A DNA stretch of 43,586 nucleotides, taken from NCBI GenBank assembly GCA_048213135.1, contig PS015623.1, positions 1-43,586 of the forward strand, in the 5' to 3' direction. A program made the position numbers and the translations under genes. Numbering within the stretch: the stretch's first letter is position 1; each line of letters opens with the position of its first letter. Origin of the DNA: Reclinomonas americana ATCC 50394. Its lineage: Eukaryota. Under the pieces are notes generated by a model that worked only from the letters and a program-made list of their open reading frames with translations, made no database searches and was not told the origin of the DNA. Positions 5,316-43,012 of the stretch are shown here, in pieces.

Positions 5316-5340
5316 ATTTTCAATCCACATTTTACTTCCG

Positions 5341-7271
5341 ATGAGCGGAGCACGAGCATCGCCCAACGCGCCCAAGAGCCACTCATCGCCCTCGCCAGCG
5401 CCTCCTGCGGCCTCCTCAGCAAAGCCGTCGGCCGCTCTGGACAACGCGTTTCGCGCCTTTTCGCAAATCCGACGCAGTGTGCGCGACTTGCAAGCAGGCT
5501 CGCTGCTGTTTCACTGGGACGCCAGTGGTCTCACGCCAAAGTTGCGCCTGTGTGTCTCCTTCTATGTGCGTGTGTGGGAGACAGAGAGTTTGAGTCGCCA
5601 TTTCCACTCACTTGTCACACACACACGCACACAGGTTCTTCTTGGTGAATCTCGAGCATCACTTGTTGTGTGTGTACGAGATTGAGCGCAACAAGCGACC
5701 AGATGGAACCTCGTCGTTCCCCTCATCGCTCGCTCGAGAGACACTGTCGTTGGAGTTTGAGGTGCCTCTGAGTTCCATTGTCAAGGTCATTGCGCTGGCG
5801 GAGCGCGATGAGAGCAAAGGGTGAGCGCACACACAGAGATAGACACACAGTCACACAGTGTCTCACTGTGTGTGCGTGACAGTCGTCGCGGCATTCCGAA
5901 TGATGATGAGGACGACGATGATTCGTATGGAGTGCCAAAGACTCCTGAGCAGATTGAGAAGCGCACGTTTGCGGTGGTGTTGCGTGATCGGCGGCACTTG
6001 ACGATTGTGTCGCCGAGTCGCGAGGACTTTAGGCGATGGTACTTTGGTCTCACGTTCTTGGCCAACATTGAGGTGCGTGGCTTGGTCGCGCAAAGACAAC
6101 TCGCGATCAGCACGGCTGATCGATGCCTCTCTTCACATGTACAGCCACTGGCGGAGGTGAATGTGACGTCGGAGTTGGCGGATCTGCTGGGCGATGAGGA
6201 TAATGTGCGGGGACTGGCGATGCGACAGCAGAATGCCGAGCGGCAGCAGCGCAGGGCCTCGGTCGACAAGAAGGCGGCGGCGGGTGGTCGGCCACTGCAC
6301 CGACAAGCGGTGCGCGTGTGTGTGTGCATGTGTGAATGTCGTTGGTGTGTGGACGTGCTGGCGCTGACGATGGCTGGTGAGCAGAGCGAGGGCGACGATC
6401 TCGGGAGCGGATTGGTCGGTGGTGTGCTCGAGGGTGGCGTGGACAGCGAGAGTGGCGCAGACAGTGCTGTGTACGGTAGTGGCGAGGAGGATGAGGAGGA
6501 GTTTGAGGACGATACGGAAGACTTGCCGGCGTCGGGGCGCGGAAGTGCCAGCCAGGTGCGTTCTCTTCACACTGTTGCTTTGTTATTGTTGATTTGCTCA
6601 CTCCCCGCACAGAGTGGTGCTCCGTCAGTGGCATGGTCGACGCTGACGCAGACTGGCTCCGACACCACGTCGCAGCGTGGCCGCGAGGTGCTGGAATTCG
6701 ACAATGAAGAGGAGGCCGACGACGACGACGACGAGGGTGAGACGGCGGCGGAGCGCGCCGCACGTGATCGGCAGCTGTCGCTGTCGTTGCAGCGGAATCG
6801 CGACCAGGCAGCGCTCATCGAGGCGCTGGCCGAGGAGAACAAACTGCTCGTGGCCATTCGGGACGAGAAGACGAATGTGATCAACAAGCTGCTGGAGCAG
6901 ATTGACATTCTCAAGGACGCCCTGTCGACCTCCATGACGCTGCAGCGCACGCACGAGGAGGAGCTCGATCGCAGACGAGAGGAGAACGAGAAGCTGATGG
7001 TGCTGCTGAGCGCGGCGCGCAGCGGTGCATCATCGTCACCGCAAGTCAAGCAACATCAGCGGCATTTGGTCGGCGAAATCGATCGACTCAATGAGGTGTG
7101 TGAGGGAGAGGAGAGGGAGGGAGGAAAGTTATATGATGTGCACGCGCGTGTGCTGACTGTGTGTGTGTGTTTGTGCAGATTGTCAAGGCCAAGGAGGAGA
7201 CCATTCAGTCGCTGGTGAAGCTGCTGAAGGACAACCGTGTGCCATTCTCACCCTCCAAGATCCGCTCATAG
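5341..7271 (+). CDS. PH-domain (PLC/Num1-like PH) protein with acidic linker and C-terminal coiled coil, 7 exons
   Basis: LQAGSLLFHWDASGLTPK|FFLVN...TFAVVLRDRRHLTIVSPSREDFRRWYFGL fits the PH beta-sandwich and its C-terminal helix Trp. Heptad-rich LIEALAEENKLL...LLEQIDILKDAL follows. Stop TAG 7269-7271. Confidence 0.7.
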
Positions 7272-15309: not shown

Positions 15310-16585
15310 ATGCGACCGCTGCGGTTGCTGGTGTGGCTTGCCGCGTACATTGTGTTGGTGGTGGTGCTGCAGCAGAGTGTGTGGCTCTTTGTCACCGTCA
15401 ATCCTCCACCCGCACCTGCATCGATTGTCACGACTGTTCTTCCGCCTCCTCCACCTCCTTCTCCACCACCTCCTCCTTCTCCTCCTCCCCCGCCACCAGC
15501 TCCACCAGTATCTCCTCTCGCAGAGCCGCTGCCATGGCCAGGTCTTTGCACCCCCTTGCACCCATGTGTATGATCATGTGTGTGTGTGACTGAGACTCGG
15601 TGAGTGCAGAGTTTCGTCGCCTGTTTGCGCCACAGTTGCCATCGCGACGACGAATGGAGCGCATGGAGGCACCAGTGCAGGTCTTTGATGGATTCCTGTT
15701 CAACGATGAACTCGATCTGCTGGAGGTCCGATCATCTCACCCTCTCCCTTTCCCCTCCCTTGCCCCTCACACTCTCTGCGGCCGCAGATCCGCTTGCATG
15801 AAATGGCGCCATGCGTGGACTACCACATCCTGGTGGAGTCGTCGATCACGCTGCGCAACGAAAGCAAGCCATTGCATTTCGCGCAGAACAAGGAGCGATT
15901 CGCTGCGTTCCTGCACAAGATCATTCACGTGGTGGTCGACGAGGCCATTGGAGACTTTGTGTACTGGGAGAACGAGACGCGCTTCCGCAACGCCATCGGG
16001 CAGCGCGGACTCGGCATGCTGCCGGTGACGGTGCAGCCGCACGACTGGGTGATGGTGTCGGATGTGGACGAGATTGTCGATCATCGTGCCGTGTGTTTCA
16101 TCAAGCACTACGCCTCCTCGTTGCCGCCAATGCTCCGTTTCCGTCTCAAGTGGGTGTTTGGCACGTTCGTGTGGCTCAACGTCAAGACGTGGGATGTGGC
16201 GGCGGCGGTGGCGGCCGAGGAGCTGTGGAAGCACAACAATCGCACGAACGAGGTGCGCAGGACGGGCTTGGAGTTGCCGGAGGTGGGCCACATTGGAAAC
16301 GGGGGTCGGTGGGCCGGCTGGCACGCTTCGTGGTGTGTTCCGCTGCTGTCGTGGGCCGAGAAGTTGCGCACGTTTGCACACAAGGAGCTGGACACGGCCA
16401 AGAACAATCACTTGGCGCGCCTGACCGCCATGCGACGCAATGGCGAGTGGTTTGACGGCACGCACCTACGTCGGCACACGCCGTCGAAAAAGGTGACTCC
16501 CGAGGCGGCCATGTTGGCGCCTGCGTATGTGTTGGAGAACGCCGATCGCTTTCGGTACTTGTTGGACCCGGAGGTGCCGGCGTGA
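15310..16585 (+). CDS. Glycosyltransferase family 17 (MGAT3/GnT-III-like beta-1,4-GlcNAc transferase), type II membrane protein with Pro-rich stem
   Basis: N-terminal TM segment, poly-Pro stem, VFDGFLFNDELDLLE|IRLHEM...LVES...KPLHF, SDVDEI (DxD) and AGWHASW are GT17 signatures. Two introns. Confidence 0.88.
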
Positions 16586-17894: not shown

Positions 17895-19081
17895 CTATGG
17901 ATACAGATGCGCAGCCATGCGCATTACGCGAGTGCCTTCGAGGTGGGGAGCGTATCGTTTGACAGTCTCCGCAAACCTGCGTGAAGAAAATGTGCACGGT
18001 GAGAGGCGGAGAGACGGAGGGGAAGCGGCCGGGGGATGGATGAACCATTGAACGAAATCGTGGTGTCCGCGTATCTCGTCGTCGGTCTTGAGTTGCACGC
18101 GCAGGAGCAGATCGAGGCTGGCGAGCGGGTTGGCGCCGGCGTTGATGGCCAACAGCAGCTCGACAGCCTCACGCTGGTACAACAGTGCGGCAAACTCCAT
18201 GGCCGTCATGCCGCTGCTGTCGGTGGCGTTGACTTGCGCGCCGAGACGAACCAGTCGCTCAATGACCGGCGTCTGGTTGGCAATGGCGGCCACCATGAGC
18301 GGCGTGCGGCTGCGCACAGGCTCCTCCATGTCCACCGGGGCGCCGGCGTCGACCAGCAACTGCACCAGCTCCACATGCCCCTCGGCAGCGGCAGCGTGCA
18401 GTGGCGTCGACTCGGCGCCCGGAAACGCCGTGTGCACACTGGCGCCGTGCTCTTGCACCATGTACCGCACATGATCGTAGTGGCCAGCCACGATCGCAAA
18501 GTACAGCGGCGACAAGCCCAGCGTGTGGTTGCACTGCTCCGGATCGCCACCGGCCGCGATCAACTCGTACACAATGCGCGAGTCCGGCATGAGCGCCGCC
18601 GTCAGCAGCGGCGATCCGCGCGCGCACGAGTCGGCGTTCGGATCGGCGCCGGCCTTGAGCAGCACGCGCACGGCCTCCAGATGCTGTTGTCGACACGCAG
18701 CGAGCAGCGGCGTGGCGCGTCGCACATCAACACCTGTCTCCGGCAAGCTGTTCGCCTCGGCCGCTGACAACACACATTGTCAGCAGCAGTCCACAAGCAC
18801 ACAGACGCGCGCGCGCGCCACTCACCGACAGAGCGATAGACGCGATAGTTCGACACCGCCTCCGTGCTCGCTCCGTGCTTGATCAGCACACTGCACACGT
18901 CGGCGTGTCCGTGCCACGCCGCCACAAACAGCAGTGTCCGCGATGCCGACACCTTCGCATCCAGATTCACCAGTGCCATTGCCGAACCCTGCAACAGCTG
19001 ATCGACCACACTCGCATCGCCCTTCTCCACGTGTCGGATCAACAGCTGCAGGAGCGCCGACTTGGACGACACACAACCCAT
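17895..19081 (-). CDS. Ankyrin-repeat protein with N-terminal MGC myristoylation/palmitoylation motif
   Basis: Repeated TPLHxAAxxGHxxxVxxLLxxGA motifs (TPLLAAC, SPLLTAA, SPLYFAI, TPLHAAA, TPLMVAA, TAMEFAA). Starts MGCVSSK. Confidence 0.9.
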
Positions 19082-20588: not shown

Positions 20589-21323
20589 GTCAGTGTGCCA
20601 TGCCTCCTGCTCCTCCTCTTCCTCCTCCTCCTGTCTCATACTTCTTGNNNNNNNNNNNNNNNNNNNNNNNNNNNNNNNNNNNNNNNNNNNNNNNNNNNNN
20701 NNNNNNNNNNNNNNNNNNNNNNNNNNNNNNNNNNNNNNNNNNNNNNNNNNNNNNNNNNNNNNNNNNNNNNNNNNNNNNNNNNNNNNNNNNNNNNNNNNNN
20801 NNNNNNNNNNNNNNNNNNNNNNNNNNNNNNNNNNNNNNNNNNNNNNNNNNNNNNNNNNNNNNNNNNNNNNNNNNNNNNNNNNNNNNNNNNNNNNNNNNNN
20901 NNNNNNNNNNNNNNNNNNNNNNNNNNNNNNNNNNNNNNNNNNNNNNNNNNNNNNNNNNNNNNNNNNNNNNNNNNNNNNNNNNNNNNNNNNNNNNNNNNNN
21001 NNNNNNNNNNNNNNNNNNNNNNNNNNNNNNNNNNNNNNNNNNNNNNNNNNNNNNNNNNNNNNNNNNNNNNNNNNNNNNNNNNNNNNNNNNNNNNNNNNNN
21101 NNNNNNNNNNNNNNNNNNNNNNNNNNNNNNNNNNNNNNNNNNNNNNNNNNNNNNNNNNNNNNNNNNNNNNNNNNNNNNNNNNNNNNNNNNNNNNNNNNNN
21201 NNNNNNNNNNNNNNNNNNNNNNNNNNNNNNNAGAGAGAGAGAGAGAGAGCGAAAGAGAGGGAAAGAACACAATAAGATTCCCACTGCGAAGAGCAGTTTG
21301 ACAGGGTACGACATGTACGCAAC

Positions 21324-24300
21324 ACTTCCTCAAATCGCGGATTCAACATGCGAATGCCGACAGGCTTGTGTGCTTGCAGAGTGAGTGGCACGCGACGACC
21401 GCCCACCGCATCCACTGTTGCTTGCACATTCGTCACGAAATCCTCAATCATGCTCTGTACGCATGTACGAACATGAGCAACACGAGAAATACTCTCCACC
21501 CTCCTACAGCATGCGGACACACCTTGGTGGCCGAGGGCGTGCTGACTTGCTCGCCGAAATGTCGCAGCATGGCGAGGAGTGGTGTCATCAACTCGGGCAG
21601 CATGGACGACTGGCGCTGCTGGTGGCAAAACACTTTGAACACCGACAGCAGCACGTGGAACACGCCAAGCCTGCACCCGACGGTCAACAAATCAAACACC
21701 CAAGTGCGACACACGCATTTGCACACATACCGAGTGGAGTTGTCGGGAGAGGCCGTCACCAAGTCACTGCCGTCCAGGTCCCCAGACAAGGAGAACGAAC
21801 GAGCATTTGTCTTTCTCGGTACCGTTGTCACATCTGCATAGAGTAAATATCGCGTCAGCGGTCCACGTGAACGCCGATATCACTCAATCACGAGCGCGCA
21901 CCGACAAGATCCGTCATCGAGCCAGGAGCCACGGCCTCGGTGATGGAGTATGCCACCGATGGACGGGGCTTCCGCAGTGCTGCTGCCAGCGTGCTCGACA
22001 AGAACGAATACACCTCCGGGGCATAGCGCTCCGACACGACAGTGTACTGTGCATGCAAGTGGTGAGACTCCACAGCATGTGTGAGAGGAAGAATACCGTA
22101 GCAGACCTGCAGGAAGACTTGAACGAGAGCGAGTCCGCGGAGTACATCGCGCACACTGCGCACCGGCGACTGCGCCAAAATCTGGCCCATCAGCAACTGC
22201 GCCGGCGTGCCGACTGGGTGCCGGTAGTCGAGTACGGAGAAGAGCGAGCCAATCAGCTGGAACCAGCAAATGTCACCAAACGAGCACCACGCGTCTCCCG
22301 TTCGCAACCGCTCTGTGAATTCCTCGTACAGAACGTGCAACTGTCTGCGTGCGCGCTTCAGCGCCATATTCGGATGCATCACGCACAACTGGTACATCAG
22401 TGAGGTGAAGTGGTTGAGCTCGGCTGGCGTCGCGCGCACGGCTTTCGTGTCCTCCTCGTCAAAGTAGAACAATGCATTGGCGTGGTAGCGGAACAGCACG
22501 CTGAGCAGTTTGCACAGTCGATCCTTGTTGCCGACGGCCAGTGAGGGATGCGTGCATTTCATGATGCGATCCAGGATCTGCGCACAAGCGACGAGTTGAG
22601 TGCCGCAGTACAAGAGAGAGTGCATAGGGAAGAGAGACAGACACACACCAACACACGCTGCGCTGGCGTCCTCCCGTCCATCAACTCGGCCATTGCTTCC
22701 ACATCCTGTGGTGCCGGTATCACAAACGGAATATCGTCGTCTGCCGACGGCGCCCCTGTTGCTGCACCTGCCGCCTTCTTCTTGTTCTTCTTTGTGGTCG
22801 CCGCCGTGTCATTCTCTTCAGCGGCTTTCTTCTCACGCCGACGTCTCCTCTTGGCATCATCATCCTCGTCCTCATCCTCCTCGTCCTTGTCACTGGCGTC
22901 CGAGTCTGCGTCGTCGTCGTCGTCAAATGCCTTGGACCCATCGTGAAACTCCACCTCCTCATCTTCGTCCTCCGCATCCTCCTCGGTGCCGCCTCCGGTC
23001 TTGCGGAGCTGCTCTTGCTTCTTCTTCTCGCGCTTCAGTTGGCGCTGCTCGCGCTTCAGACGCTTGCGTTCCTTGCGGTCCAGCTTGGCAGCCGCTGGCG
23101 CCAGAGTGCCATCGGCACCAAAGCCATCCTCATCGTCGTCCGAGTGCGCGTCAGCCGATGGACGCGCCGACGACGACTTGCGCAAGTCACTGGCCGTCAC
23201 TGAAGAGGGGAAACAAAGGAGAGAGTGAGTGCGGGAATGCGGAGAATTCTGTGCTAATAACACGCACCAACAAGGTTGCCGGGTACGGCACGCAAGTCGT
23301 CATGGTCGTCGCCAGTGTTCGCTGCAGCGGCGCCGCCGCCCGAGCCGGACGCCATGCGTCGACGGCGTCCCGCCTCGAGCTGCTCCAAGCGCGCAACCTC
23401 CTCTGCCGCCAGCTCGTCCTCTGTCTTGACACGATTCGCCGCCTGCGCCTTCTCCTCGCGCTGCACGTCCTCGCTCAGCAACTTGGTCAGCTGGTCGAAC
23501 GCGTCGTACTCGTCCAGTTCCTCCTCGTCCACCACCTTCTTGCCCTTGAGCTTGCTCGTCTTGGCTGCAGCCTGCGAGTCGTTGAGCGGAACATCATTCG
23601 CACCGGTGCCTGCCGTATCCTTCTTCTTCTTCGGAATCATCGACGGTGCAAGCAGCTTGCGAATGTCGTTGAACTGCGCATCGAGATCCATGATGGAGTC
23701 CTCTCTCGCGGCACGCTCTGTGCCACACAGAATACACACGCACGCAATCAGACTCGTGCGTGCGCGTCCGTGTATGTGTGCGGCGAAAAACAAGAGCACC
23801 AACCTTTGCGACGCTCGCCGCGATACATCTTGCTCTTGGCGACAATCTCCGCGTACACCTCCGCCTTGGTCTTTTTCCGTGCCGGTTGGTCGTCGTCCCC
23901 GCTGCTTGTGCCACTGCCCTCACCGCTGTCGCCCTCACGCGGTCGCTTCCGACGCTCACCACCACCACCGAAATGATGCTCGTCGACAATACGCTCGTCA
24001 ATAGCGCCTGCACTGGCATCGCTGTCGTCGTCGTCCGAGTCGCGAATGTCGATGCGATCGAGACTGCGCACCGGCTTGCCACCGTGCGTCATGGTGAAGA
24101 AGCTGCTCGATCCTCCAAGAGCTGCAGAAGAGAGTTAGCAGGGGGAGGTATGGAGAGAGAGACGGGGATAGGTGAAGCCGCAACTGCTAGGTCCGCCATC
24201 GGCATCGTCCGAGTCGTCATCGTCCACGGCAAAGGCGGCAGCCTTGCGTGCCTGTCGCGTACGCTCGCGCTGCAGGCGGCGAAGCATCTTGTCTTCTTCA

Positions 24301-25053
24301 GACATGTTGCGATTGCGCTCGCCAATGCGACGATCGACAAACGCGTTGGCGGAGCCCCTGTGGTTGGCGAAGAGTGAGGAAGTGGGAAAGGGCGATGGGT
24401 GGGGAGGAGTGAGAAAGCGTGGGGAAGTGTGAGGAAGTGAGATAAAGAGAGTGCAAGTGAGAAAGTGTGTGGAAGAGTGTGAGAAAGTGTGTGAGAGAGT
24501 GTGGAAGTGTGTGTAAGTGTGTGAAAGTGTGTGAAAGTGTGTGGAAGTGTGTGGAACTGTGTGGAAGTGTGTGGAAGTGTGAGAAAGAGTGTGGAAGTGT
24601 GTGAGAGTGCGTGCAAGTGACTGCTTCACTGCATCGATGTCAGTATGTCTCCTCTCTCTTCCGTCTGTCTCCCTCCTATCCCACTCTCCCTCCCTCTCCC
24701 TCTCTCTCCGACGCAACATGTGCTTCAGTTCGACGGCGAGCGTCTTGCGTCGGATCTCGTTGCCGCGATCCCTCCGCTGCGCCACATTCAGCGGCTGTTG
24801 AGTCACCGGATCCACAGGCAAGCCGCGAGTCTGTCCCACCGCGGGAAAGTTGCGACGAGACACCACACGATCAAAGGCGGTGCCTGCACGGGCAAAAGAG
24901 TTGCGCGTGTTATGTGCACATGCACATCACCAAGTGGAGGACATGGCCACACAACGCACCTTGTGGCTGGGTCTTGGTGGAGGCTGTGCCACCGCCAGAG
25001 GAGCGGCGATCCACCACTTTGGCCAGCTTGGCTCGTTGTGTGCTCCTGCCCAT
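21324..25053 (-). CDS. NOP14: Nucleolar protein 14 (SSU processome); C-terminus lost in gap
   Basis: NAFVDRRIGE...EEDKMLRRLQRER, THGGKPV, KTKAEVYAEIVAKSKMYR, RVKTEDELAAEEVARLEQLE, DYRHPVGTPA and PLTLQAHKPVGIRMLNPRFEE are Nop14 motifs. Confidence 0.92.
24405..24610. repeat. Intronic 10-bp tandem minisatellite (GTGGAAGTGT-like), about 14 clear copies plus degenerate flank
   Basis: gtggaagtgt gtgtaagtgt gtgaaagtgt gtgaaagtgt gtggaagtgt gtggaactgt... inside the 360-nt NOP14 intron 24358-24717. Confidence 0.9.
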
Positions 25054-25524: not shown

Positions 25525-26861
25525 GGTGGTTGTTGGAGTTGTTGAGGGCCTTGTTGAGATGAGATTGTCTGCTCTCCAGCAAAGGTAGAAACTTGTTGTC
25601 TGGCCGCCAGATCCGCCACGTCTTCTTTTATGGCCCACCAGTGAGCCGGCTGACAGGTTTTTTTTGCAACAAAAACCGAACCCGACAGCAGCCTCATTTA
25701 GCACTTTGTGTACATTCAGCACCGAATTCAGCAGACAGTGTGTCCACGGAGGGGTGTCACCGTGGATCAGAGGCCAGCAGGAACACCATGGCATCTTCCG
25801 AGTTTCCAGAAGTGTTCTGCAGCAGCGACATCGATGAAAAAACTCGTCAGTGAAAAAAATCCTGTCAAGCAAAAACAAAAGCAAGCGAGTCGCTCACCGC
25901 CAGCGTCAGCGTGTCCATCGGGTGGATCTTCCACGGCAATAGGTAATCCTTCAACATGGAACACATGACATTGCACCGCCGCAAGGTAACGCACACCGAG
26001 ATGGTCGGTGGGGTGTCCTGAGGGAAATAAAGAAGGATGAGCGATTTATCTTTCGGNNNNNNNNNNNNNNNNNNNNNNNNNNNNNNNNNNNNNNNNNNNN
26101 NNNNNNNNNNNNNNNNNNNNNNNNNNNNNNNNNNNNNNNNNNNNNNNNNNNNNNNNNNNNNNNNNNNNNNNNNNNNNNNNNNNNNNNNNNNNNNNNNNNN
26201 NNNNNNNNNNNNNNNNNNNNNNNNNNNNNNNNNNNNNNNNNNNNNNNNNNNNNNNNNNNNNNNNNNNNNNNNNNNNNNNNNNNNNNNNNNNNNNNNNNNN
26301 NNNNNNNNNNNNNNNNNNNNNNNNNNNNNNNNNNNNNNNNNNNNNNNNNNNNNNNNNNNNNNNNNNNNNNNNNNNNNNNNNNNNNNNNNNNNNNNNNNNN
26401 NNNNNNNNNNNNNNNNNNNNNNNNNNNNNNNNNNNNNNNNNNNNNNNNNNNNNNNNNNNNNNNNNNNNNNNNNNNNNNNNNNNNNNNNNNNNNNNNNNNN
26501 NNNNNNNNNNNNNNNNNNNNNNNNNNNNNNNNNNNNNNNNNNNNNNNNNNNNNNNNNNNNNNNNNNNNNNNNNNNNNNNNNNNNNNNNNNNNNNNNNNNN
26601 NNNNNNNNNNNNNNNNNNNNNNNNNNNNNNNNNNNNNNNNNNNNNNNNNNNNNNNNNNNNNNNNNNNNNNNNNNNNNNNNNNNNNNNNNNNNNNNNNNNN
26701 NNNNNNNNNNNNNNNNNNNNNNNNNNNNNNNNNNNNNNNNNNNNNNNNNNNNNNNNNNNNNNNNNNNNNNNNNNNNNNNNNNNNNNNNNNNNNNNNNNNN
26801 NNNNNNNNNNNNNNNNNNNNNNNNNNNNNNNNNAACCGCATACACACAGAAGCAACGCAAC

Positions 26862-29800
26862 TGGCATCAACCACAGCTGCTGCAGTCCATTCAGCTCAAA
26901 CATGGCCTCGTATGTGCGCTGTGATGCCAGCTGATCCAAGTCCACTGTGACAGAGGCCTCGCCCACCGACTTGTCCTGCGTGGGATGCGAGTGAGCTCCA
27001 GATTCCCTGCAGCGATGACACAGTGGAAAATCAAACCAACCGTTCGGCGAATGGTGACCGTGAGGCTCTCCAGCTCCTCGAACAGCATCGGCAGGAACGA
27101 CTCGTGGCATACGATAAAGTACTGATCATTGCTTTCGACAATCAGCGGGCCGGGCATGTACAGAGAGCACTGTAGCGGGTGGGAAACACACAAGTAAGCA
27201 ACAGATAGCAGCAACAGGGAGGGGGCTGTGAACAGACGCAACACTGTGTGCCATGCGCGGCCACTCGGCCAGCTTGTACGCCACCTCCCATGTGCTGTCG
27301 AGCTCAATCTTCATGCCGTGCAGCGAGTTGATCTGCGCACCAATGACACTTCAGTTCGGCATGCCCACATGACACGCGTAAGCACCGACGCTCTCACCTG
27401 CACGCCGATCGAGTACAGTTGGTAGCCCTTCAGCACGTCGGGGCGATGGCGTGCTGTGCGCGCCGTTTCGGTGCCGCGCACCAGACGTGACGGCTGCGGT
27501 TGCTCCTCCGTCTTGGCTGTGTGTGTGTGTGACAATGCACCAGTCAGACAGAGAGTACATTGACAAGGGAACAGCACGTCACGAAACGTTCTGGTCTAGG
27601 AGTGACAATGTTGAACGCCTCACGCAGGTTTTCATCCTCCTGTGGCACTGTTGTGAGCATGCACGCGAAGCCAAGGGTGCGATATGACACACTCGCTGCT
27701 CACCGTCTTTTGCGTTGACTTGGAGCTCTTCCACGCGATTTCTGCAACATCCGCTCACCGTGTCAACACCTCTGCGATCACAATGAAGATGCAACGAAAC
27801 AAACAGAGACGCAACGGCGAGTGGAAGGTCCTGGCCCAAAGCCAGTTCCGATCTCCAGGGAGCGCATCGGTGACAGGGCGCGTGTGATTGACCCTGCAGT
27901 GGGCATGTCAGCACAGAAGAGAGAGAGAGAGAGAAAGGCAAGCACAGGACAAGAGCGACGAAACGTGCAGAGGTGAAGGACGACGGGGAGCGACTGCGAG
28001 CCACGGATCCCGGCCGGGCCGCCGACGCGTTGAGGCAACTGCCAATCGGCAGCGTGGCCTTTTCTCGCAACTCTTCTTTGTCAGGCAGCAAGTCGATCCA
28101 CTGGCACAAGAAAGATGGTGAGTCGCGAGTACACTTTCTCTCGTCAGGAGACAGACGAACCTCGTCAGGAAGCGGCTCGGCATAAAAGTAGTCAATGGGT
28201 GGCAGATAGATTTGACCAAACTGCTCTAGATGCATGTCCGACGTGTCGATCACACTGCTGCAAGAGAACGCAATGGTGCCCTGCATAACGCGGTGAGTAA
28301 CGAATCGCTAGAGGGGCTGTGGAAGGGTGACGACAAGGGCACCTTGAGAGTGGCCATGTCAAACAAATCCGACGATAATATCTGCTGGTAGTCCAGCTTG
28401 TCGAGCAGTCCGCTGACAAACTGGCCAAGCGAGAGAGCCACACGGCCGACCACTTCACCATTGGCCGTCTCCAGCGTCACAGGAATATCCTGCAGCGATA
28501 GAGAGTGAGCGGTCTCTCACCACTTTTGCACAACAGAGGCGACAGAACACTACGAACCCTCTGATCACGCAAGAACTGCACAAAGTCCTGGTGACTGTTG
28601 ACGAAAAAGTGATACACGCGGAGCTTGCCCACCGGCACAATCTTGCGATCGCGCACCGGTCCGTCGGACGGTGTCAACACTGACCATAAACACAACCGTG
28701 CACGTGAGAAGGAGTCGTTTAAGCGCGAATGCCGCGCGATTGAGGAGGGAGACGCAACATGAGTCCGAAGCGCTGTGGCGAGGCGGCATCGGCAGCGTTC
28801 CGCCAATGTCTTCGACACTGTGGGGCGGGGAGGCAATTTTGAGACACACGCATGGAGAAAGGAAGTGGCGGCGCGAACTCGACGTACCACTCGCGCAAGC
28901 TGACTTTGAAGGGCGAGTTCAGTGCGTGCACATTCAACGAGAACTCGGTCTCATCAATCGCAGCCGACACGCCGCGCAGCTCAAACAGCACCACCACCAT
29001 GCGGTACAGGATGAGCTTGGAGGGGCGGCGACGATCTTCGAGAGTGAGTGCATTCTTGGTGTCCGCTGCGACGATGGTCACCAACGTGAGCGAGCGAGGT
29101 GACAGCTGTGCGCACAGAGCGAGGCAACAATGGTACGAAACCTCTTCTCGTCGACTTGGAGCCACGCTCACGCAGCACAAAAGTGTCGCTCTTGTTCTCG
29201 ATGACCGCCTGTGCCGACACGGGCACACCAATGGCACGAGCAAACTGCACCTCCAGCTCCGCCAGCCGCTCCTCAACCTTGTACACATCATAACTGCGCA
29301 CAGCTCGTCGTCGTCAGCACAGGCCTTCACACACACACACAGTAGCAGGGCGGCGAGTTACGCAACCAATTCTTGCACACGTGGCACAGCTGGTACCAGG
29401 CGGCCAAATCGCTCGTGGACTGGAACTCCGGACGATCGAACCAGTCCATGACCACACCTCGTCGCTGCAAAAGTGTGCACCGCGTAAGACAACCGACGGA
29501 CGTGGGAGAGGGGGAATCAAGGAATCACACACCGTCAGATGCGACTCAGTGTCGAAAATCATCTTCAGTGTCATCGAGTACTGCAAATCGCCAGGTGGAT
29601 AGTGTGCCAGACACGACTTGCACGGCACAAGCTTCTCAGCGTGTAGTCCCGCCGAATCATCCTGCGCATCGATGCGTGTAAGAGAGAGATGCACCAGAGC
29701 CGCAGACACTGCGCATGTGAGACGCACGGTTTCGCGAGCCTGCGAGAAGCCGCCGGTTCCGAGCAGGGCGGCAAGAGGGTCACTGGTCGACAGCATGCCA

Positions 29801-31511
29801 GTGTTGCTGCCCATGGAGCGCGCAGCCTGCATAATGACGTCTTGTGCCTTGGCCGGCGGCAACTTGGTGTTCACCTTTGGCCTCTTCAGCTTCTCCGGCA
29901 ACTTGACCGTCTCCACAGCCTTGACTTGCAGGAACCACCACGTGCCGTCCATGTCTGCAAAGCGATGGTGAGTTTCCCCTGAGGGAAGAAAGAGAAAGAA
30001 GTATTTGCACGCACCACGACAGAAATCACACGCAAGGCGCGTCACTTGCTGGCCCTTGATGCAGCGATTAATCTGCTGCGCCACCTCTGCGGTCATGGCG
30101 GAGGCCTCGTCCAACGAACCGCCAGTCACGCGGAAAATCGTGATGCTGCCGGGCACATCCACGGTGGTAGTGTAGCGCTTGCGAAGATCCTTCTCCTCGG
30201 CAAAGTCGAACTTCATCTGCGCACGATGGTGTGGTGAGCATCAATCGACACCGCCCAGAGCGTCAGTCGAAAACACACGCAACTCGATTGGTGATGCACC
30301 ACCCGAATGGTGCACGATCGGTGCTCCAGTCGATGCGTGTGATGCACGCCTTGGGGCCGCGTGGCCTCACGTACCGCTGAATCACATACTGTCCCGACGG
30401 CGCATTCTCCATTGTGTTCTTCAGCTCACGCGCACTGAGCAAGGACAACTCGTTGCCGGCACCAGCCGCAAACCCAGGCTGCAGCACAGAGAGGAGCGAG
30501 TTAGCGCAAGCCTCGAGGCTACACATGCACTGCGTGAGACACCCAACTCGTTTGATGACGGCCACGATCGACTCGTCGGTGATGTCGGGACCAATGCAGA
30601 TCTTCTTGACAATCGAGTCGGCGGTGACGTTGTCCACTCTGCGCACGCACGTGTAAGACAGAGTGTCCATGCGTGCGTGTCTCCACAGTGACTCACCGAT
30701 AGAGGAACCCATCTCGCCCCGTAAAAAACCACACGGGCGTCTCCTCCACGCCAAACACAATCGTGTCGGGAACACGCACTCGGATCAACCCGCGCGACAC
30801 GGAGTTATTGCCCTCGAGCTCTCCACGCGGTCGCGGCACCAACGCCGCCATCAACATTACACCAGTCAGCGGGCACAGTGACTCAGTCGCCATGGCCTAC
30901 ACATGAGAAGCATGTGAGAGACGGTGTGTGCGAGTAACACGAGGAAAAGAGCAAAATAACATACCACAAAGGTGGCAGCGTCGAGCAGCGCCTGCTGCTT
31001 CTTCTTCTCCACCTGCGCAGAGAACTTCTTGCGTGCATTGATGCGCTCCAGCTCACTGCAACACACACTCGCGCATGAGTCAAACACCCCTCTCACTCAC
31101 ACTCACTCGTGTTGACGCAACACAGCCTCGATCTTCTTGTAAATGTCGCCCTCCAGCTCGTCCTTGGCGTGTGCGTCGCCTGTCGCTTGCCCAATCTGCG
31201 AGTGCCAGAGTGTGAGTCAGACAGTCAGTGCGTGTGTGTCAGTCACACACGCAGGCACTGACCGGCACTGAGTGGAGGCCAATGACTCCATCGACCTTCT
31301 CATACTTGGTGGCAGCAGCTCCGCGGCCGGCGGAGAGAGAGCGCGGAGCTGGTCCGCGTCGCTCGGCACTGCTGCTGCGACCTGAAGAATACACAAGACA
31401 AGAGAAAGAGAGGAGAAGTGAGCATGCGTGTGCAGAGAGAGGGAGGAGAGAGAGGCGTGTGGTTGGTGCTGCGTGGCGCGCACCTGCACTGCCGCTGCGA
31501 GGTCCGCTCAT
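26862..31511 (-). CDS. Large multi-exon uncharacterised protein with ATP-grasp-like region and C2-like beta-rich regions; 3' end in gap
   Basis: In-frame spliced exons include VPDTIVF...WFFTGRDG, YVIQRYVRPRGPKACITRIDW, LACDFCR|DMDGTWWFLQVKA, CKSC and YLPPIDYFYAEPLPDEWIDLLP. Exon joins near 27550-27950 are uncertain. Confidence 0.6.
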
Positions 31512-32538: not shown

Positions 32539-35500
32539 ATGAGTGGTGCCACGCATGACAACAGTGACGACAGCAGCGACGGTGGTGGAGAAGACTCTTC
32601 GGGCGCGCCCCCTTCACTCCCCACAGCAGCTGCCCGCGGATCCGGAGGCCGAAGTATGTCACGCGTTGTGTGTTTCTCTTTTCGAATCTCCTTTCGCATC
32701 TTCTTCCTCACTTGTCCGACAGGCACAGCTGCAGGCTCCACTCTTCTTGCTCCCAGCACTCCACTGTCACACTCTGCCGTGATGCCCGAGTTCACCAGTG
32801 TGGTGAGTGGTGACTGCTGCACTGGGTGTCTCTGTGTGTCGTGGCGCCCCCCTATTCGCGCCACCAGTGCGCAAAAGTTGTCGGTTGAGAAACTTATTTT
32901 TGGGCTGCGACTGCTGCACCTCTCCTCTCCGCCCATGTTGCTGCACAGGAGGTGGAATACATCGAACCGCGCTCACCTACCGACATCAAGGCTGCCAGCG
33001 GCACCTCCACCGTCCAACGCACTGCTGTGCCAATCGATGAGCTCGGTCGTGGAGCCGGTCCGCTGCGCTCACGCTCCCGCAGCGGCAGTCTGAGTTCGGG
33101 CACCTCGACCGGCAGCGGCTCGCCCTTGCTGCAAGCTATCAATCCGTTTGGAGCCAGCTACGCCACGGCGACTGCACCCAATGTATTCGCCGAGCTGCGG
33201 CAGGCGATTTCACTGGAACTGCGTGAGTACGACCCCGGTGTCGTGGCTCGGCAGACCTCAGTGCGCTTGACACCGGAGGAGCGCCTCAGTGTGGCTCGCT
33301 GCGCTGGCATTGTTGCGTTGTCTGTTTGTACCCACAGCGCAGTGTACATGTACCTGATACTGTTTTCTTGTCGCAGCAAGAGCACTTGTTGTCGGTATTG
33401 GCCGTGGCCGAGAAATACGGCACGCGCATTTCTCGTGATCGGGCTGACATCCAGGTGCGCTGCATTCGTGCTTTTCCTTCGCAATACTCGTGTTCTGATG
33501 GCGTATGCAGGGCTTGACCTCTGCTGAGGCCACCAATCGCCTCGCCGCCAATGGTCCGAATCTGCTTACACCGCCCAAGCGAATCCACCCACTGTTGCGC
33601 CTTCTCCGTCTCTGCTGCACGCCAATCACTAGCTTCGAATTCTCTTGCTGTGGCTCACTGCTGTGCACGCAGGGTGTCGTTCCTCAAGTGCTGCACCGAT
33701 TTGTTCAACCTGCTGCTGCTCGGTGCCGCCGTCATCAGCTTCCTGTTGATCATCACAGATCCAGGCCTGTCGGACAACGTTTCGCCTCCCGCCTGTGATC
33801 TGCAAGTTCTCGTTGCACTGAACTTGCGAATTACTACTGCTGCAGTACATTCTCGGTGGCCTGCTGGTGTTTGTGGTGCTTTTCAATGCCACCATTGACT
33901 TTGTGCAACGCCGCAAATCGGAGCGCATCCTCGCTGGCTTTGCCAACATGCTGCCGCCCGAGGCGACCGTAGTTCGCAACGGCGAACAGCAGCGTGTGCC
34001 TGCGGCGGGACTCGTCACTGGTGATGTGGTCATGGTGCGCCCGGGCGATAAGGTTCCGGCCGACATGCGCGTGATTGCCACTCGCGGTCTGAAAGTTCGC
34101 CGTGTGTCTTCCTCTTCTTTTTCCGTAGGACTTCGTTGTTGCGCTAACCTACAGAGTGCGCGGATCAGGTGGATCACTCGTCGCTCACGGGCGAAGCTGA
34201 GCTGCAGACCCGCACAATTGTGACCATGACCGAGGTCAATCCACTGGAGGCGAAGAACATTCTGTTCTACGGCACCAATGTGGTGATGGGAGAGGGTGAA
34301 GGTGAGTCATCAGCCATCGTGTACCTGCTGTTCTTCTCCTTCACTATTGTATGCTAATCGTCACTTGTTGTGCAGGCATCGTGATTCGCACTGGTGACAA
34401 TACCGTACTCGGCAACATCAACAAGACAGTGTCGTCGGAGAAAGTGCGCTCGTCGCCAATGACACGGGTATGCAGCGCAGCAGAGTGCATGCACATCTCA
34501 TGCCATCATCGTACCATGTAGACTGTATCTGTATGCTGACAAGTGTTGTGCGGCCGGTGCAGGAAATCCACTCCCTGGTAATCAAGATCGGCATCATTGC
34601 TGGCATTGTCGCTGTTGTCTTTTTCATCATCGGCATCTTGCTCAGTGAGTAGTGCTTTGAATCCAACAGTTGTTGCACTGCACTGATTCAGCTGCATTGC
34701 AGAGTATTCGATTTCTGTGAACTTCCTCTTCTGTGTCGGCATCATTGTGGCATTGTTGCGTCTCTAGTCTCTAGATCTCTATTCTGCAACAGTGTGTGGC
34801 CATCCTCCTCCGTGACTCATTGTTGTGCTTTCATGCAGCCTGCCGCAGGGACTGCCCTCCACTGTAATCGTTCAGTCTTTGTGTGCCACATATCCCTTCA
34901 CCACCGCCACCACCACTGATTACCGCCATCGCAGATGTTGCTGACCATTGCCGCCGCCAACATGGCCAAGAAGAATGTGTTGGTGAAGAGCCTGCATGCT
35001 GTCGACACCCTCGGTGAGATCAATCAGAAGAGTGTTGCTAGACTTGTCACTGCTGACATGTGTGCATCCTCTCCACCACACAGGTGCCGTGACACTGCTG
35101 GCCTCCGACAAGACTGGTAAATGCGTGTGAAGAGTGGTAATGCGTCTCAGCGGCAAGCTCATCCACTGCTGGCAGGCACACTGACGCAGAATCGCATGAC
35201 CGTTGTCAATGCGTGGATCGACAATACAATATACCGCGTTGTCCCTCCTGGACTGGAGGCGCCGCCTGGCGCTGTCCACATCTTCAGTCGCGAGTCGCCG
35301 AGCTCCGTGACGTTGCTGGAGGCCGCTCTGCTTTGCAATCGGTGAGTGCTGACGACCATCGATGGCGAGTCAGAAAATTGCTGACTGTTGTTGCAATTTC
35401 ATGGCGGCAGTGCTCGTTGGGCACCAGTGGCGGACAGTGACGTGTCTGCTGTAGGTGGTATTCGCGAGCGTGCCATCCTCGGTGATGCAACAGACACCGG

Positions 35501-38203
35501 TCTCTTCCGCTTTGCCATCAACAACATGGAGTCGGAGGCCGAGGAACTGGAGGTGCTGCTCTGCATTCATCTTCAGTGATCGCATTGGTGACAATGTCGG
35601 TTTCATCGCTGACTCTCTGTTGTGCAGATACAACGTCGGTGCAAGCGTATCTTCGAGGTGCCATTCAGCTCGGAGACCAAGACGCACCTCATCATTGTGG
35701 ATCGTGTTGACGACGGACGCCTGTTGATTATCAAGGTCGGTGCTCATTAGCTGTCCAGCAGCAATCAGTGCTGCCGCTATCCTAACACTCATGTACGCAT
35801 GCATGCAGGGAGCTCCCGAGCGTGTTCTTCGACGCTGCTCTCGCGCTCGTTTCAACGGCGGAGCAGAAGTTGACTTGGACGATGCAGTGGCGGAAAATTT
35901 TGATCGTGCCTATCGCAACATGGCGAACCAGGGCCAGCGTGTTCTGGCGTTCGCCGTGTTGCAGCTGACGGGCGAGATGGCGTCGGCGGACTATCAGTTC
36001 ACTCTTGACCCGCCGAACTACCCCGAGGTGAGTGGTCACTGCTTTTCCATCTGTGGAGACTGGAGAATGAGTCTGACTGAAAACATTGGTGTGTTCCACA
36101 GGATTCCTACGTGTTCCTTGGCCTTATCGGACTGGAAGTGAGTTACCTGGTTATCAAGGCACTTGCGCACTCGATCTCTCACACGACTGCACAGGACCCA
36201 CCCAAGCCAGGCGTCGCGGCCGCAGTGGAGACTGTTGCGTTGTCAACAGACACAATGCATCAGTCATTGTCCAACCTCTGCGCTCATTTAGTTTCCCACG
36301 CGCAGTGCCGTCGTGCCGGCATCCGCGTCATGATGGTGACTGGCGACCATCCGCTCACGGCGGAGGCCATTGGTCGCCAGGTCGGCATCATTCGCGGTTT
36401 GAAGCGAGAGGACGTGGCACGCACTCGCAACGTACCGGAGGAAGAGGTCCCCGAAGATGGCTACGACGCCGTGGTCATTCACGGCGACAAGATCGACACG
36501 CTCACCGACCACACCTGGCACAGTATCCTCAGCAAGTCGGAGGTCATCTTTGCCCGGTAAGTGCGAACACGAACAAACATAATTGTTTCCAGTTTTTTCT
36601 CACACCTGCTTGTGTGCAGAACGTCGCCGGCGCACAAGCTGGAGATTGTCAAGCGTGCGCAGGAGTGGGGCCATGTGGTTGGCGTCACTGGCGATGGTGT
36701 GAACGACTCACCAGCACTGAAAAAGGCCGACCTCGGCATCTCCATGGGCATCTCGGGCAGCGATGTGTCGAAGGAGGCCGCATCCATGATCCTCATGGAC
36801 GATAACTTTGCCACGGTGACCTTTGGCATTGCGGAAGGTAACGGAACTGCTGACGCGTACACCTACATGTTTGCGTGCATGCATGCACCGACACAAGCGT
36901 ACACACGCAGGTCGCCTCATTTTCGAGAACCTGAAAAAGTCGATCAACTACACGCTGACCCACATCATCCCTGAGCTCATCGCCTTCCTCCTCTTCATCG
37001 CGTTTGCTCTTCCGCTTCCACTGTCGTCCTTGCTGGTGCTGTTCATCGATCTCGGCTCCGAATTGTGCCCAGGTCTGTATTCATAATGATTGCAGTCGAT
37101 TGTCGTGTGTTCGCTTACAGTTGACACTCGCGTGTGCAGCTCTGTCGTTTGCCTTTGAGCCGCCGGAGGGCGAACTGATGATCAAGTGCGTTTGGATACT
37201 GTACACATGTGGCTAATGTCTTGTATCATTCCTCATCCAAGTATACCACCACCACCAGGCTGCCTCGCCGTCGAGTGGTGCCGCCGCCGGCGCCAGCGAG
37301 AGTGATCGAGCCTGGACGCTCGTTTGACGTCGAAGGTGGCCATCCCTCGGGAGGCTCTCCTGCCCTGCGTGCTGCAGGTGGTGGCGTGCAGCCGGCGCCC
37401 CCACCGCTCGTGGTGTTGTCGCGCATGGCCAGCTATCAGGCGCCACCCACGTTGCCAAAAATCGATCCGGTCGACATGCGATCCAGCGACGAGCGGCTGG
37501 TGGACACCAAGCTGCTGATCAACGCGTACTTGCAGATTGGCTTGTTCGAGACGCTCGGTTGTCTGGTGGTGTACTTTGTCGTGTTCTGGATTCACGGCAT
37601 CACGTCGGTCAAGGCGCTGTTCTTCACCGCCCAAGACTACTTTGCGACCACCACGACGCTTGACTTTGTGTTTGAGGATCGCTCTTACGTTGCGCAGCCT
37701 TGCTGTTGCTCATCATGCGAACTGTATCATGCATGATCAGTCTCGATTCCACTCACCGTCGTTGATGTTAACAGTCTCCCGACGAGCAGCGCTGGATTCT
37801 GGCCTCGGCACAGTCGGCATACTACTTGACCCTCATCATGATGCAGTGGGCCAACATGTTTCTCTGCAAGGCGCGCTACGGCACCATCTCGCGTTCGGCA
37901 TTCAAGTGAGTCTTCTTCACACACTTCCCACAAGCCTGATAACAAGCGCGTTTCCTCATTTCCCTTCACTCGCACAGGAACCGCATGACGTACATCGGCA
38001 TTGTCGTGTCCATTATTGTGGGCGTCATCATCGTGTACATGCCAGGCATCCAGCTGGTGGTCAAGTCGCAAATCGTATTCCCGCCGGTGCTCATCGGTTG
38101 CCTTCCGGTCATGGCAGTCATGATTTTGTACGATCAAGTCCGCAAGTGGGTCGTCGTTCGCACGGGCATTCGCGGGTGTGCTGCCGAGTACTGGAGCTGG
38201 TGA
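32539..38203 (+). CDS. P-type ATPase alpha subunit, type IIC-like (Na+,K+/H+,K+ related), about 26 exons
   Basis: GLTSAEA...[104 protein letters not shown]. Ends AEYWSW*. Confidence 0.95.
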
Positions 38204-38433
38204 CCTGCTGTCAAGCATGCTCTCTTGTGCTCCACTCGAGAGTCTTCTTCTGTTTTCTGTATCCATGTTCTTCACCTCCCCTACATACGCGCTCGATCTG
38301 CTCGATCAACGCCATTGAAGTGCGAAGCGCCTTGCTGACATGCATCAACCACCTACACACATCACCTGGCTTCACGTAAACAATGTGTTGTGGCTCTAAA
38401 TTGCTCATGCAGTCGCGTTTGCGCCTGCTTGCG

Positions 38434-40303: not shown

Positions 40304-43012
40304 ATGGAGCCACGGCGACGACCATTGGACATCGCGCCCGATCCTGATGTGGACGACGATGCCACCGCAGAGGAAGCCGCGTGCATGCGAGTGCCCAGCG
40401 TTCGCGGCTCGTGGGACTTGATTGGCGGAACTCCCCATCCTACACCCACTGAGGAAGGGGATGCGGATTCAGAAGACGAGGAGGCGCATGGGAGCTCCTC
40501 TCTGCGCGCTTCTCTCTCCGCCCCCGTGCACCGCTCCTCCCCTCCTGCGTGGTCGCCGTCCGCCTCCACCGCCACCGCAGTGGCGGCCGCCTCAGAGGCC
40601 GGCTTGGAGCTGCTGCCACCGCCACCAGTGCCCGGTGTGGTGCTGGAGGCGTACCAGGAGCAGAAGGGCCCGACGCACTACAACGTGGCGACGTCGAGTC
40701 GCGAGCGCGCAGCGGCGCAGATCAATGGCGTTCAAGAGTATGTTGTGTTGCCGCACCACACGCCAGGTGAGTGTGTGAGATTGTTCGGGCACTTTTTTCT
40801 GGCAGCGACTTGCATTGACGAGTGCGCGTGCTTGTGTAGCGTGGCCGCGCATCGACGAGTTGCTAAGCAGAACCATCACGGATGAGGCTGGCCTGCGTGT
40901 GCGTGCTGTGTGCTGCGTGTATCTTGTCCGCCGGGTTCCATTGGTCAATATCTCTCTCTTTGTGTTGTGGCAGGCGTTTTACCGTGAGCTGGATCCATCG
41001 TTGGCCTATGTGGGCGAGACGCTTGCCGAGTTTGTGAGCACGCAGATGACGGAGGAGGTTAGTGGCGTGTGTGCGTGTGTGTTCGGTGTCGTGTGTGAGC
41101 GACTGTGCGTGACCACTCTTCCTGTCGTCGGCTTCTGCCAGGAACGTGAAACCTTCTATCATGGTACACTGAAGAGCATGATGGATTACGCGCAAGGCGG
41201 TCCGCTTCTCCTCCCGGCACACTTGCCGGTGCTGAGCATTGGGCGTGGTGCGATTGGCTGTTCCGTTGCAATGCTTCTTCCGCCCCCTCGCTCACTCGAT
41301 TTGCCTGGGCGACGCAGATGTGGCCGTGACCATCTCGCAGCATCAGGCCGCCTGTCTGGTGGCACAAATGGTGTTGTGTATCGCCAAGTTCGGGGACGTG
41401 CATCTGACAACATCGACTCGATATCCGAATTCTGGCATGCCAAGCCGCACGTTTGAGCGTCTCTTTGGTGGTGCGTGATGCATGTGACACTCCGATCGGG
41501 AACAAGAGAAAGAGACCGCGAGTTTGGTTCGCTCACTGTGCTTTGTGCGTATGTGTGGCAGACGAGCTTCGCGGGTCGCGCGCTGGAAAGCTGCGTTGCC
41601 TGTTCAACTACTTTCTCCGCATCGTGGATCACGGTTGCGTTTGTTTGTTCTCTCTCTCACACACACATACGCCGACAACTCCCACTTAAGAACTCACCCT
41701 GTTGTCCGCCACTTCTCAGTGTCCACCGGCAATCTCACATTCCACCGTCACGTGCTGCGTCCGGACGACGTTGTTGACTGGACTGCGTGTGAGACGCCAA
41801 TGTTGCCAATGTGTGCCGTTTCTGATAGTATCGCGATCGAGGACTGCGAGCCTCCATGTCTGATGTGCGACTTTGCGAACCGCTACATTGGCGGTGGCGT
41901 GACTGGCGGGGTGCGTAAGAATGAGTGCTCTCACCCCACTTTTTGCGTTAAAGTAACTGTGGCGATTGCAGGGTTCCGTACAAGAGGAGATCACGTTTGT
42001 CATCAAGCCGGAGCTGCTTGTTGCGCTGTTGCTTGCGCCCACAATGCAGGAGAACGAGACGATCACAATGGTGTGCTTGATTGTCGCAGCACGCGTGTGC
42101 GTGTCTGAGAGAGTGCTGCTCACTTGCGCATATGACAGTATGGCGCCGAGCGCTACTCAAAATACCGCGGCTACGCGGCATCGTTTGAGTTTGCCGGCGA
42201 TTTTGTGGACCCGGATGTGGGGACGTGAGTTATTCTTTCCGATATGCATCATGTCTTCTTGTGCGTCTGCGGGTTCTGAGCGATCGATACACACAGCGAT
42301 GCGTGCGGTCGTCGTCGCAGCTGGGTGGTGGCCATGGACGCATCGATGAATGCCCGAGGCAGTACGGCACAGTTCCGCTACAAGAATATTCTTCGCGATC
42401 TCAACAAGGCCTACTGTGCCTTCCGCGTCGACCGATTGTTGGACACTGACGATCGGTTGACAGCCATTGCCACTGGCAACTGGGGCACCGGTGTATTTGG
42501 TGGCGACAAGGATCTCCGTTGTTTGCAGCAGTGGATGGCGGCGTCTGTCGCAGCTCGTCACGTTGCGTGTTTGTGTGTCTCATATGCATGTTTCAGTCTA
42601 TTGGCAAGCAACTGATGTGCATGTGTGCAGCTGCGGTTCTGCACGTTTGGCGATCGCAGCCTGGCACTGCGTGTCGCCGAACTCGACCACGTGCTGCGCA
42701 CCACCGAGGTCCACGTCAGCGTCAGTTGCGTGGCCATCTTGCTGTCTCGGTGCACTGCCACACGTCGGATTCTCTCTCTCTCTCTCACACACACATACGC
42801 CCGCAGTGGAGGTTATTCGGTATCTGCACGACTACAAGGACTACCTCAAGCACTTTACCAAGGAGGCGGACAGGCGGTCTGTGAAGCTGACCGAGGAGAT
42901 GATGGAGGAGCACTACGGAAAGCACTTTTGCCCGGCAGTCGAGTACGTACGTCGGCGCATTACTGGACAGGCACTGTACACTGGCAACCCCAGTCGCTGC
43001 AGCACCATGTGA
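40304..43012 (+). CDS. PARG: Poly(ADP-ribose) glycohydrolase (canonical macrodomain PARG)
   Basis: DFANRYIGGGVTGG|GSVQEEI (GGG-x-QEE catalytic loop), GAERYSKYRGY, VVAMDA, RDLNKAY, ATGNWGTGVFGGD...QWMAAS. Confidence 0.95.

Follow-up and report, generated by a model that had tools for sequence, protein, structure and literature searches.

A 43.6-kb stretch of DNA from Reclinomonas americana ATCC 50394 (43,586 nucleotides (nt), hereafter the window; eukaryotic DNA with a G+C content of ~57–61%) carries a gene for a P-type (Na/K-like, type IIC) ATPase, and the introns of this gene and of its neighbors begin with two classes of 5′ splice site, or donor. Class R, about two thirds of donors, is of the usual G/GTG(A/C/T)GT type (the slash marks where the exon stops) and uses the last exon base, position -1. 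The remaining third or so, class T, follows the consensus GTTGCG(T/C) and carries its information entirely on the intron side, from +3 to +7. Our analysis used the DNA of the window, protein homology and our own scripts, and the junctions are predicted.

32539..38203 (+): P-type (Na/K-like, type IIC) ATPase gene, 27 exons and 26 introns, coding sequence of 3750 nt

The ATPase model is a single open frame with one terminal stop. All 26 introns run from GT to AG, and their removal restores one frame of 3750 nt, as expected of U2-type GT-AG introns. With an 84-residue exon as query we retrieved 423 relatives, the best being a transcript of Diphylleia rotans (67% identical over that exon), followed by early-diverging fungi at 55–63% identity. 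We placed the junctions with a custom protein-to-genome aligner that requires introns to start with GT or GC and end with AG and leaves the donor motif unscored, using 22 of 120 homologues (every second one of the first 40 with at least 1000 residues, plus P0001 and P0002). Homology alone fixed 23 junctions, most of them in 17–22 of the 22 alignments, and three further N-terminal introns were placed by frame only. At six of the GTT junctions conserved ATPase motifs, like those of other Na/K ATPases, cross the junction gap-free in translation, which excludes a donor three bases downstream (GTT/GC). At 37259–37500 (+) an in-frame insertion rich in Pro, Ala and Gly, ~80 residues long, separates conserved membrane segments; it is absent from the homologues, several alignments attempted to remove it as an intron, and its codon statistics are good.

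For the rest of the window we used a custom gene finder based on codon usage and acceptor signals. Its first run, without a donor model, called 153 introns in gene regions and recovered 17 of the 23 homology-fixed ATPase junctions exactly; its second stage, for which a donor model was self-trained on +3 to +8 alone and kept blind to the exon, called 118 introns and recovered 19 of the 23. These two de novo runs are cited below alongside the alignments for the ATPase donors that bear on the base at -1.

33312..33318 (+): GTT-class donor att/GTTGCGT, phase 0 after an Ile codon; placed by frame and by both de novo runs, in the non-conserved N-terminus and not homology-fixed
33594..33600 (+): GTT-class donor act/GTTGCGC, phase 2 within a Leu codon; 21 of 22 alignments
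33779..33785 (+): GTT-class donor aac/GTTTCGC, phase 0 after a conserved Asn codon; 17 of 22 alignments; an old intron position
34095..34101 (+): GTT-class donor aaa/GTTCGCC, phase 0; 21 of 22 alignments
34755..34761 (+): GTT-class donor att/GTTGCGT, phase 2 within a Phe codon; 22 of 22 alignments
34870..34876 (+): GTT-class donor atc/GTTCAGT, phase 0 after an Ile codon; 22 of 22 alignments
36234..36240 (+): GTT-class donor act/GTTGCGT, phase 0; 22 of 22 alignments
37689..37695 (+): GTT-class donor tac/GTTGCGC, phase 0 after a Tyr codon; 5 of 22 alignments, picked by both de novo runs
32654..32659 (+): ordinary donor after A, gaa/GTATGT; from the frame-consistent model only, outside the homology-fixed and de novo sets
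34645..34650 (+): ordinary donor after A, tca/GTGAGT; 9 of 22 alignments (12 of 22 favor a GC donor at 34640), both de novo runs
36138..36143 (+): ordinary donor after A, gaa/GTGAGT; 22 of 22 alignments
37186..37191 (+): ordinary donor after A, caa/GTGCGT; 12 of 22 alignments
37906..37911 (+): ordinary donor after A, caa/GTGAGT; 19 of 22 alignments
35117..35122 (+): weak donor after G, ctg/GTAAAT; 21 of 22 alignments
35553..35558 (+): weak donor after G, gag/GTGCTG; 16 of 22 alignments, with two alternative acceptors
35736..35741 (+): weak donor after G, aag/GTCGGT; 21 of 22 alignments
37073..37078 (+): weak donor after G, cag/GTCTGT; 20 of 22 alignments

Donor 37689 lies in a poorly conserved stretch, where it has rivals at 37668 (nine runs, with three acceptors), 37644 (four) and 37692 (two). 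A preliminary description of this DNA had noted that all eight GTT donors of the ATPase follow a base other than G, and this holds: the preceding bases are T, T, C, A, T, C, T and C. The remaining 18 donors comprise 13 after G and five after A, so that G precedes 0 of 8 GTT donors versus 13 of 18 others (Fisher p = 0.0016), and 0 of 7 versus 12 of 16 when only the 23 homology-fixed junctions are counted (p = 0.0013). Its two companion observations are likewise borne out, in that the other non-G junctions, all five of them after A, use GTGAGT (three), GTGCGT or GTATGT, and the four weak donors GTCTGT, GTGCTG, GTCGGT and GTAAAT all follow G. Within this gene the wider rule it had drawn (a non-G at -1 goes with a GTT donor or a perfect +5G+6T) is obeyed, by 13 of 13 non-G junctions versus 7 of 13 G junctions (p = 0.015); it fails in our largely unverified calls in the rest of the window (31 of 51 versus 24 of 43, p = 0.68).

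The second source of homology-fixed junctions is a Nop14 gene, five junctions of which were fixed by 16 distant homologues, found by exhaustive search and only ~35% identical.

24711..24717 (-): Nop14 GTT-class donor cat/GTTGCGT; 12 of 16 alignments, with Pfam Nop14 matches on the flanking exons
24178..24184 (-): Nop14 GTT-class donor gca/GTTGCGG; 11 of 16 alignments, with two alternative acceptors
23797..23803 (-): Nop14 GTT donor after G, aag/GTTGGTG; 16 of 16 alignments

The other two junctions are ttg/GTGTGT (9 of 16 alignments) and cag/GTCTGC (16 of 16). The donor at 23797..23803 has +5G/+6T and is of the ordinary type with T at +3. With Nop14 added to the homology-fixed set, G stands at -1 in 1 of 10 GTT donors versus 14 of 18 others (p = 0.0011). 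The Nop14 intron at 24358–24717 (-), which starts with GTTGCGT, measures 360 nt, ~5 times the usual 73 nt.

Outside the ATPase and these five Nop14 junctions, introns are our own de novo calls. Word-index homologue searches with one Nop14 exon and one exon of the poly(ADP-ribose) glycohydrolase (PARG) gene listed below gave no match, and Pfam profile coordinates across the predicted PARG and P2X junctions were too coarse for fixing junctions. The remaining genes recognized in the window are as follows.

10288–12081 (+): P2X-receptor-like gene (Pfam, weak matches)
15815–16579 (+): GT17 glycosyltransferase gene (Pfam)
18075–19072 (-): ankyrin-repeat protein gene (Pfam)
41320–42561 (+): PARG gene (Pfam)

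Strongly coding genes at 320–7250 (+) and 26984–31054 (-) matched no Pfam family, and a search of the window with Rfam at gathering thresholds found no RNA genes, small nuclear RNA (snRNA) genes included. Four runs of N (4073–4092, 9503–10136, 20648–21231 and 26057–26833; 2015 bases in total) make the low-GC troughs in the composition profile only apparent.

We assembled a window-wide set of 119 introns from the stage-2 calls, replacing the regions 33400–38420 (+) and 22000–24800 (-) by the 28 homology-fixed junctions. Class T accounts for 38 of the 119, and 23 of these 38 read GTTGCG; after GTT, the class has G at +4 (76%), C at +5 (82%), G at +6 (84%) and T (61%) or C (32%) at +7. Independently of any intron call, GTTGCGT is strand-specific within genes, with 22 sense and 2 antisense copies (p = 4 × 10^-5), versus 24 sense and 18 antisense copies of GTGAGT. 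The number of sense GTTGCGT copies called as donors (17 of 22) exceeds that of GTGAGT (10) and GTGCGT (9).

In length, branch-like motifs and acceptor the two classes look alike. Median intron length is 73–74 nt in both, the acceptor (G/A)CAG is common to both, and branch-like motifs (CTGAC, CTGAT, CTAAC) and their spacing are similar. A YTRAY motif lies a median of 21–22 nt from the 3′ end where it occurs, which is in 21 of the 38 class T introns and 36 of the 81 class R introns; those without YTRAY may use looser branch sites such as CTCAY. Across the window the 3′ splice sites show an extended consensus, with C at -3 (95–96%), G at -4 (63%) and a pyrimidine at -5, and in many ATPase introns the place of a pyrimidine tract is taken by a TG-rich run such as TGTTGTGCAG (for example at 34362–34375, 34541–34562 and 35615–35627). 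We considered an introner-like mobile family and rejected it, an all-against-all blastn of the 119 introns having given only 14–27-nt matches in both classes; GTT introns share no common sequence past the donor. Pairing of a GTTGCG start with a CGCAG intron end was also unsupported (12 of 38 versus 15 of 81, p = 0.16), and an exact reverse complement of +2 to +7 occurs inside the same intron in 0 of 38 class T introns.

The relation between -1 and donor class extends beyond the ATPase. In the stage-2 calls outside that gene, G stands at -1 in 7 of 30 GTT donors versus 35 of 64 others, and exon-end and intron-side match are anti-correlated, as in two-sided donor classes, both in the verified junctions (p = 0.0013) and in this replicate (p = 0.007), confirming the link between GTT donors and a non-G exon end. 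The motif GTTGCG occurs 55 times on the two strands of the window, eight times after G, and our gene model gives 4 of 23 called GTTGCG donors with G at -1; the preliminary description had about 4 of about 27. Class T is more than a mere strong intron side, because it has less G at -1 (7 of 38) than class R donors with a perfect +5G+6T (24 of 36, p = 4 × 10^-5); within class R alone, G at -1 does not differ significantly between donors with (24 of 36) and without (25 of 45) the perfect +5G+6T (p = 0.36). The base at -1 is G in 18% and T in 32% of class T donors and G in 60% of class R donors. Among non-donor sense-strand GT sites G precedes ~21–22%, and among non-donor GTT sites the figures are 14% for G and 40% for T, so the -1 composition of class T matches the GTT-site background and reflects an absent exon-side preference, not a depletion of G.

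Having no exon-side preference, class T stands at junctions where the protein code forbids G. In six of the eight ATPase GTT cases a G at -1 would alter the residue or create a stop (Ile, Leu, Asn, Phe, Ile and Tyr codons). The compensation rule put forward in the preliminary description, by which such donors free exon ends from coding constraint, is supported in its GTT half; the U1-shift mechanism given for it is not, as set out below. Donor class is tied to phase through the codon position that provides the last exon base: phase 1 is found in 0 of 8 ATPase GTT introns versus 7 of 18 others, and in five of those seven the G opens a Gly or Ala codon.

To relate the donor motifs to their possible readers, we folded each donor, from -3 to +9, with the canonical 5′ arm of U1 snRNA given by Tan et al. 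2016 (PMC4856993). These energies leave out pseudouridine and the U1 proteins, and the canonical arm may not be this organism's. Mean duplex energy was -5.56 kcal/mol for class R and -1.56 kcal/mol for class T, versus -2.5 kcal/mol for 2675 non-donor GT sites; class R is thus complementary to the canonical arm, and class T is not. GTTGCGT forms no stable duplex with it in any register (best 0.5 kcal/mol). Class T is also strict at +5, where 31 of 38 donors have C; at +4, the equivalent position of class R, only 26 of the 81 donors do (p = 5 × 10^-7). In core sequences, C fills the variable position in 23 of 26 GTTGNG versus 13 of 44 GTGNG, and by reading of the list of verified junctions in 6 of 6 GTTGNG versus 2 of 10 GTGNG.

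We read the introns of the window as ordinary major-spliceosome GT-AG introns with two kinds of 5′ splice site, a reading on which our judgment is evenly balanced. The data show the two classes, their relation to -1, the strand bias of GTTGCGT and the common 3′ signals; how class T is recognized is inferred from them. Class T would be read by the usual 5′ splice-site readers, U1 first and U6 later, with one extra U accommodated; G+6 and U+7 would take the places of the usual +5G and +6U, and no exon pair would form. Because C at +5 is strict and no stable duplex forms with the canonical arm, a lineage-specific determinant would have to be added, which could be a protein, an altered U1 5′ arm or an additional one. 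Of these candidates the altered or additional U1 arm explains most, and a shifted register on a non-canonical U1 may be involved.

Several points weigh against this reading. Accommodation of an extra U is unsupported by the canonical-arm energies and leaves the C at +5 unexplained. All junctions are predicted from DNA and protein alignment. Only 28 of the 119 are homology-fixed, the other 91 being our own calls, ~75–80% exact on the training gene. Self-training of the stage-2 donor model can sharpen the class T logo. False GTT calls would show background composition at -1 too, so noise could account for part of the flat composition seen across the window. The donor-blind replicate outside the ATPase shows just a trend (G at -1 in 7 of 29 versus 40 of 98, p = 0.13), and in the unverified calls outside the ATPase weak donors do not depend on G (p = 0.68).

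Among the alternatives, a U1 with an altered 5′ arm, or a further U1 variant alongside the canonical one, could be complementary to GUUGCG(U) and read class T while the canonical arm reads class R. This would account for a motif that is sharp over +3 to +7 and strand-specific yet misfits the canonical arm, and the C at +5 calls for a G partner. In a scan of 614 near-canonical arm variants, one carrying an additional A and a change of U to G is predicted to bind class T at -7.07 kcal/mol (class R -4.81, background -3.66). For no single variant did the two classes both reach the margin that class R has with the canonical arm, which speaks for two readers over one. Set against this, a perfect complement running on into CCUG would favor G at -1 again, and the U1 5′ arm is among the most conserved of eukaryotic RNA sequences, which lowers the prior for any change in it. 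On balance we regard this alternative as possible but unlikely.

The mechanism originally proposed was that canonical U1 binds GTT donors in a register shifted by one base, G+1 replacing G-1, such that GTTGCGT is read as G/GTGCGT with one mismatch. The positions fit in part, as +4, +6 and +7 of class T (G, G, T) mirror +3, +5 and +6 of class R (G, G, T), and a shift predicts the absent preference for G at -1, which a simple bulge does not; shifted and bulged registers have been proven in human cells, according to passages of Tan et al. 2016 (PMC4856993). However, class T duplexes are weaker than those of random GT sites, with none stable for GTTGCGT, and G+1 lies opposite C9 in only 6 of 38 class T duplexes with the canonical arm, at energies near zero. 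The excess of C at +5 is not predicted by a plain shift, and GTTGAGT, despite its better pairing with the canonical arm, shows no strand bias (3 sense versus 2 antisense). Finally, -1 in class T equals background and is unlike the A-rich ordinary -2 that a one-base shift would put there. On the duplex energies, the C at +5 and the composition at -1, the shift on canonical U1 is poorly supported, and we give it a low probability. A bulged register at +2/+3 fits poorly as well, because it would keep the -1G pair, yet class T has G at -1 in 18% of cases versus 14% in the background.

A historical explanation would make the GTT introns younger, inserted at proto-splice sites other than AG/G, so that both flanks lack G. 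The downstream flank does differ: G opens the next exon after 7 of 38 class T versus 32 of 81 class R introns (p = 0.023), a difference on both flanks that donor–U1 pairing leaves unexplained, although in the verified junctions the downstream effect is 3 of 10 versus 11 of 18 (p = 0.24). We used metagenome loci for intron positions only; the metagenome scan found no close relative, the best being 58% identical over 84 residues. The intron at 33779 is common, in position and phase, to four distant relatives, the loci L003, L006, L007 and L010, where the donors are GTAAGT, GTAAGT, GTTAGT and GTGGGT, respectively, after AAC or AAT. The GTT class is thus not limited to young introns, and at this shared position the relatives have a consensus donor. 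Age is poorly resolved overall, with only 4 of 23 ATPase intron positions common to any relative, and the absence of a common sequence past the donor also speaks against recent insertion, making this history improbable in our estimation. In three further metagenome loci (L009, L011 and L012; GC 0.66–0.68) the aligner put several introns at GC donors (GCGCGT), which may point to frequent GC-AG introns there.

Selection bias could produce the pattern if donors were picked by eye, or by a score trading exon-side for intron-side match, since any threshold on a total score makes positions negatively correlated, and the failure of the wider rule in calls outside the ATPase would agree with it. We nevertheless consider such an artefact very improbable: the ATPase junctions were fixed by homology without motif scoring, conserved motifs cross six GTT junctions without indels, replicate donors were chosen blind to exon bases, and the sense/antisense count needs no intron calls. 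Least credible of all, class T as diverged minor (U12-like) spliceosome introns would share with U12-type introns a long intron-side donor motif and no exon-side preference, but its donor is unlike the RTATCCTT-like sequence of U12-type donors, and CTRAY-like candidate branch sites, branch distance (median 21 versus 22 nt) and CAG acceptors are the same in both classes.

Part of this picture has precedent. A 2022 study (PMC9803359) describes two major donor classes with anti-correlated U5 and U6 potential, and Kenny et al. 2025 (PMC11842720) describe "left-handed" and "right-handed" 5′ splice sites. As in the classes described there, the window has an exon-side group, with G at -1 and a weak intron side tolerated, and an intron-side group, with a trade-off between them; unlike those described there, the intron-side class here is not //GURAG but carries T at +3 and C at +5 within a GTTGCG(T/C) motif. 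Class T, about a third of donors, also misfits ACAGA pairing by inspection. The shifted-register sites of Roca and Krainer 2009, as related in PMC4856993, include a human model site, /GUCAAGUAU, that pairs well when shifted. Class T resembles such sites in having no G at -1 and its downstream G and U one position later, and differs in that GTTGCGT has no stable canonical duplex and that class T is abundant whereas the human sites, as described there, are rare. The same source reports validated non-canonical registers in human for 1.5% of 201,541 sites, with 68 for the +2/+3 bulge and 51 for the +3 bulge. An extra U after GU could bulge in a similar way, as in those bulged or asymmetric-loop registers, with later positions pairing as usual, but here GTT donors make up 38 of 119 and class T leaves the -1G pair unused. 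In fission yeast, N6-methyladenosine (m6A) in U6 "diversifies exon sequence at the 5′ splice site", in the words of Ishigami et al. 2021 (PMC8163875). The likeness is the idea that the exon end is freer in sequence where the intron side makes a strong contact; the difference is that the fission yeast case concerns A at +4 and U6 modification.

Full-text literature searches for GTTGCG or GUUGCG as a donor returned only primers and unrelated RNAs, the supplements of genome papers lying outside the search, and searches on CRuMs and apusomonad protists found no literature on donors. The text of the Mantamonas genome paper (PMC10492846), in the passages covered and with its supplements outside that coverage, mentions no splice-site consensus. 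What is new here is the GTTGCG motif, its abundance and its misfit to the canonical arm; the trade-off between exon and intron sides was already known. We regard class T as a real, abundant and lineage-specific donor class on the strength of a well-supported lead that is not yet settled.

A bolder proposal is that the organism has two 5′ splice-site readers, the canonical U1 arm and an additional RNA arm, from a variant U1 or a different snRNA, that would be complementary to GUUGCG(U) and serve about a third of introns with no exon contact. We put this forward tentatively, as possible but unlikely. If true, with two readers introns could survive at any codon boundary or spread to it. The U1 5′ arm and a GTRAGT-like donor are nearly universal. 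Gene-finding programs built on standard donor models will misplace junctions of the kind described here, as our donor-blind run did for 6 of 23. A genome in which a third of donors read GTTGCG, fit no register of the canonical arm and disregard the exon end would be a natural experiment on 5′ splice-site recognition by the spliceosome, and it would show how far intron-side signals free coding sequence from splicing constraint.

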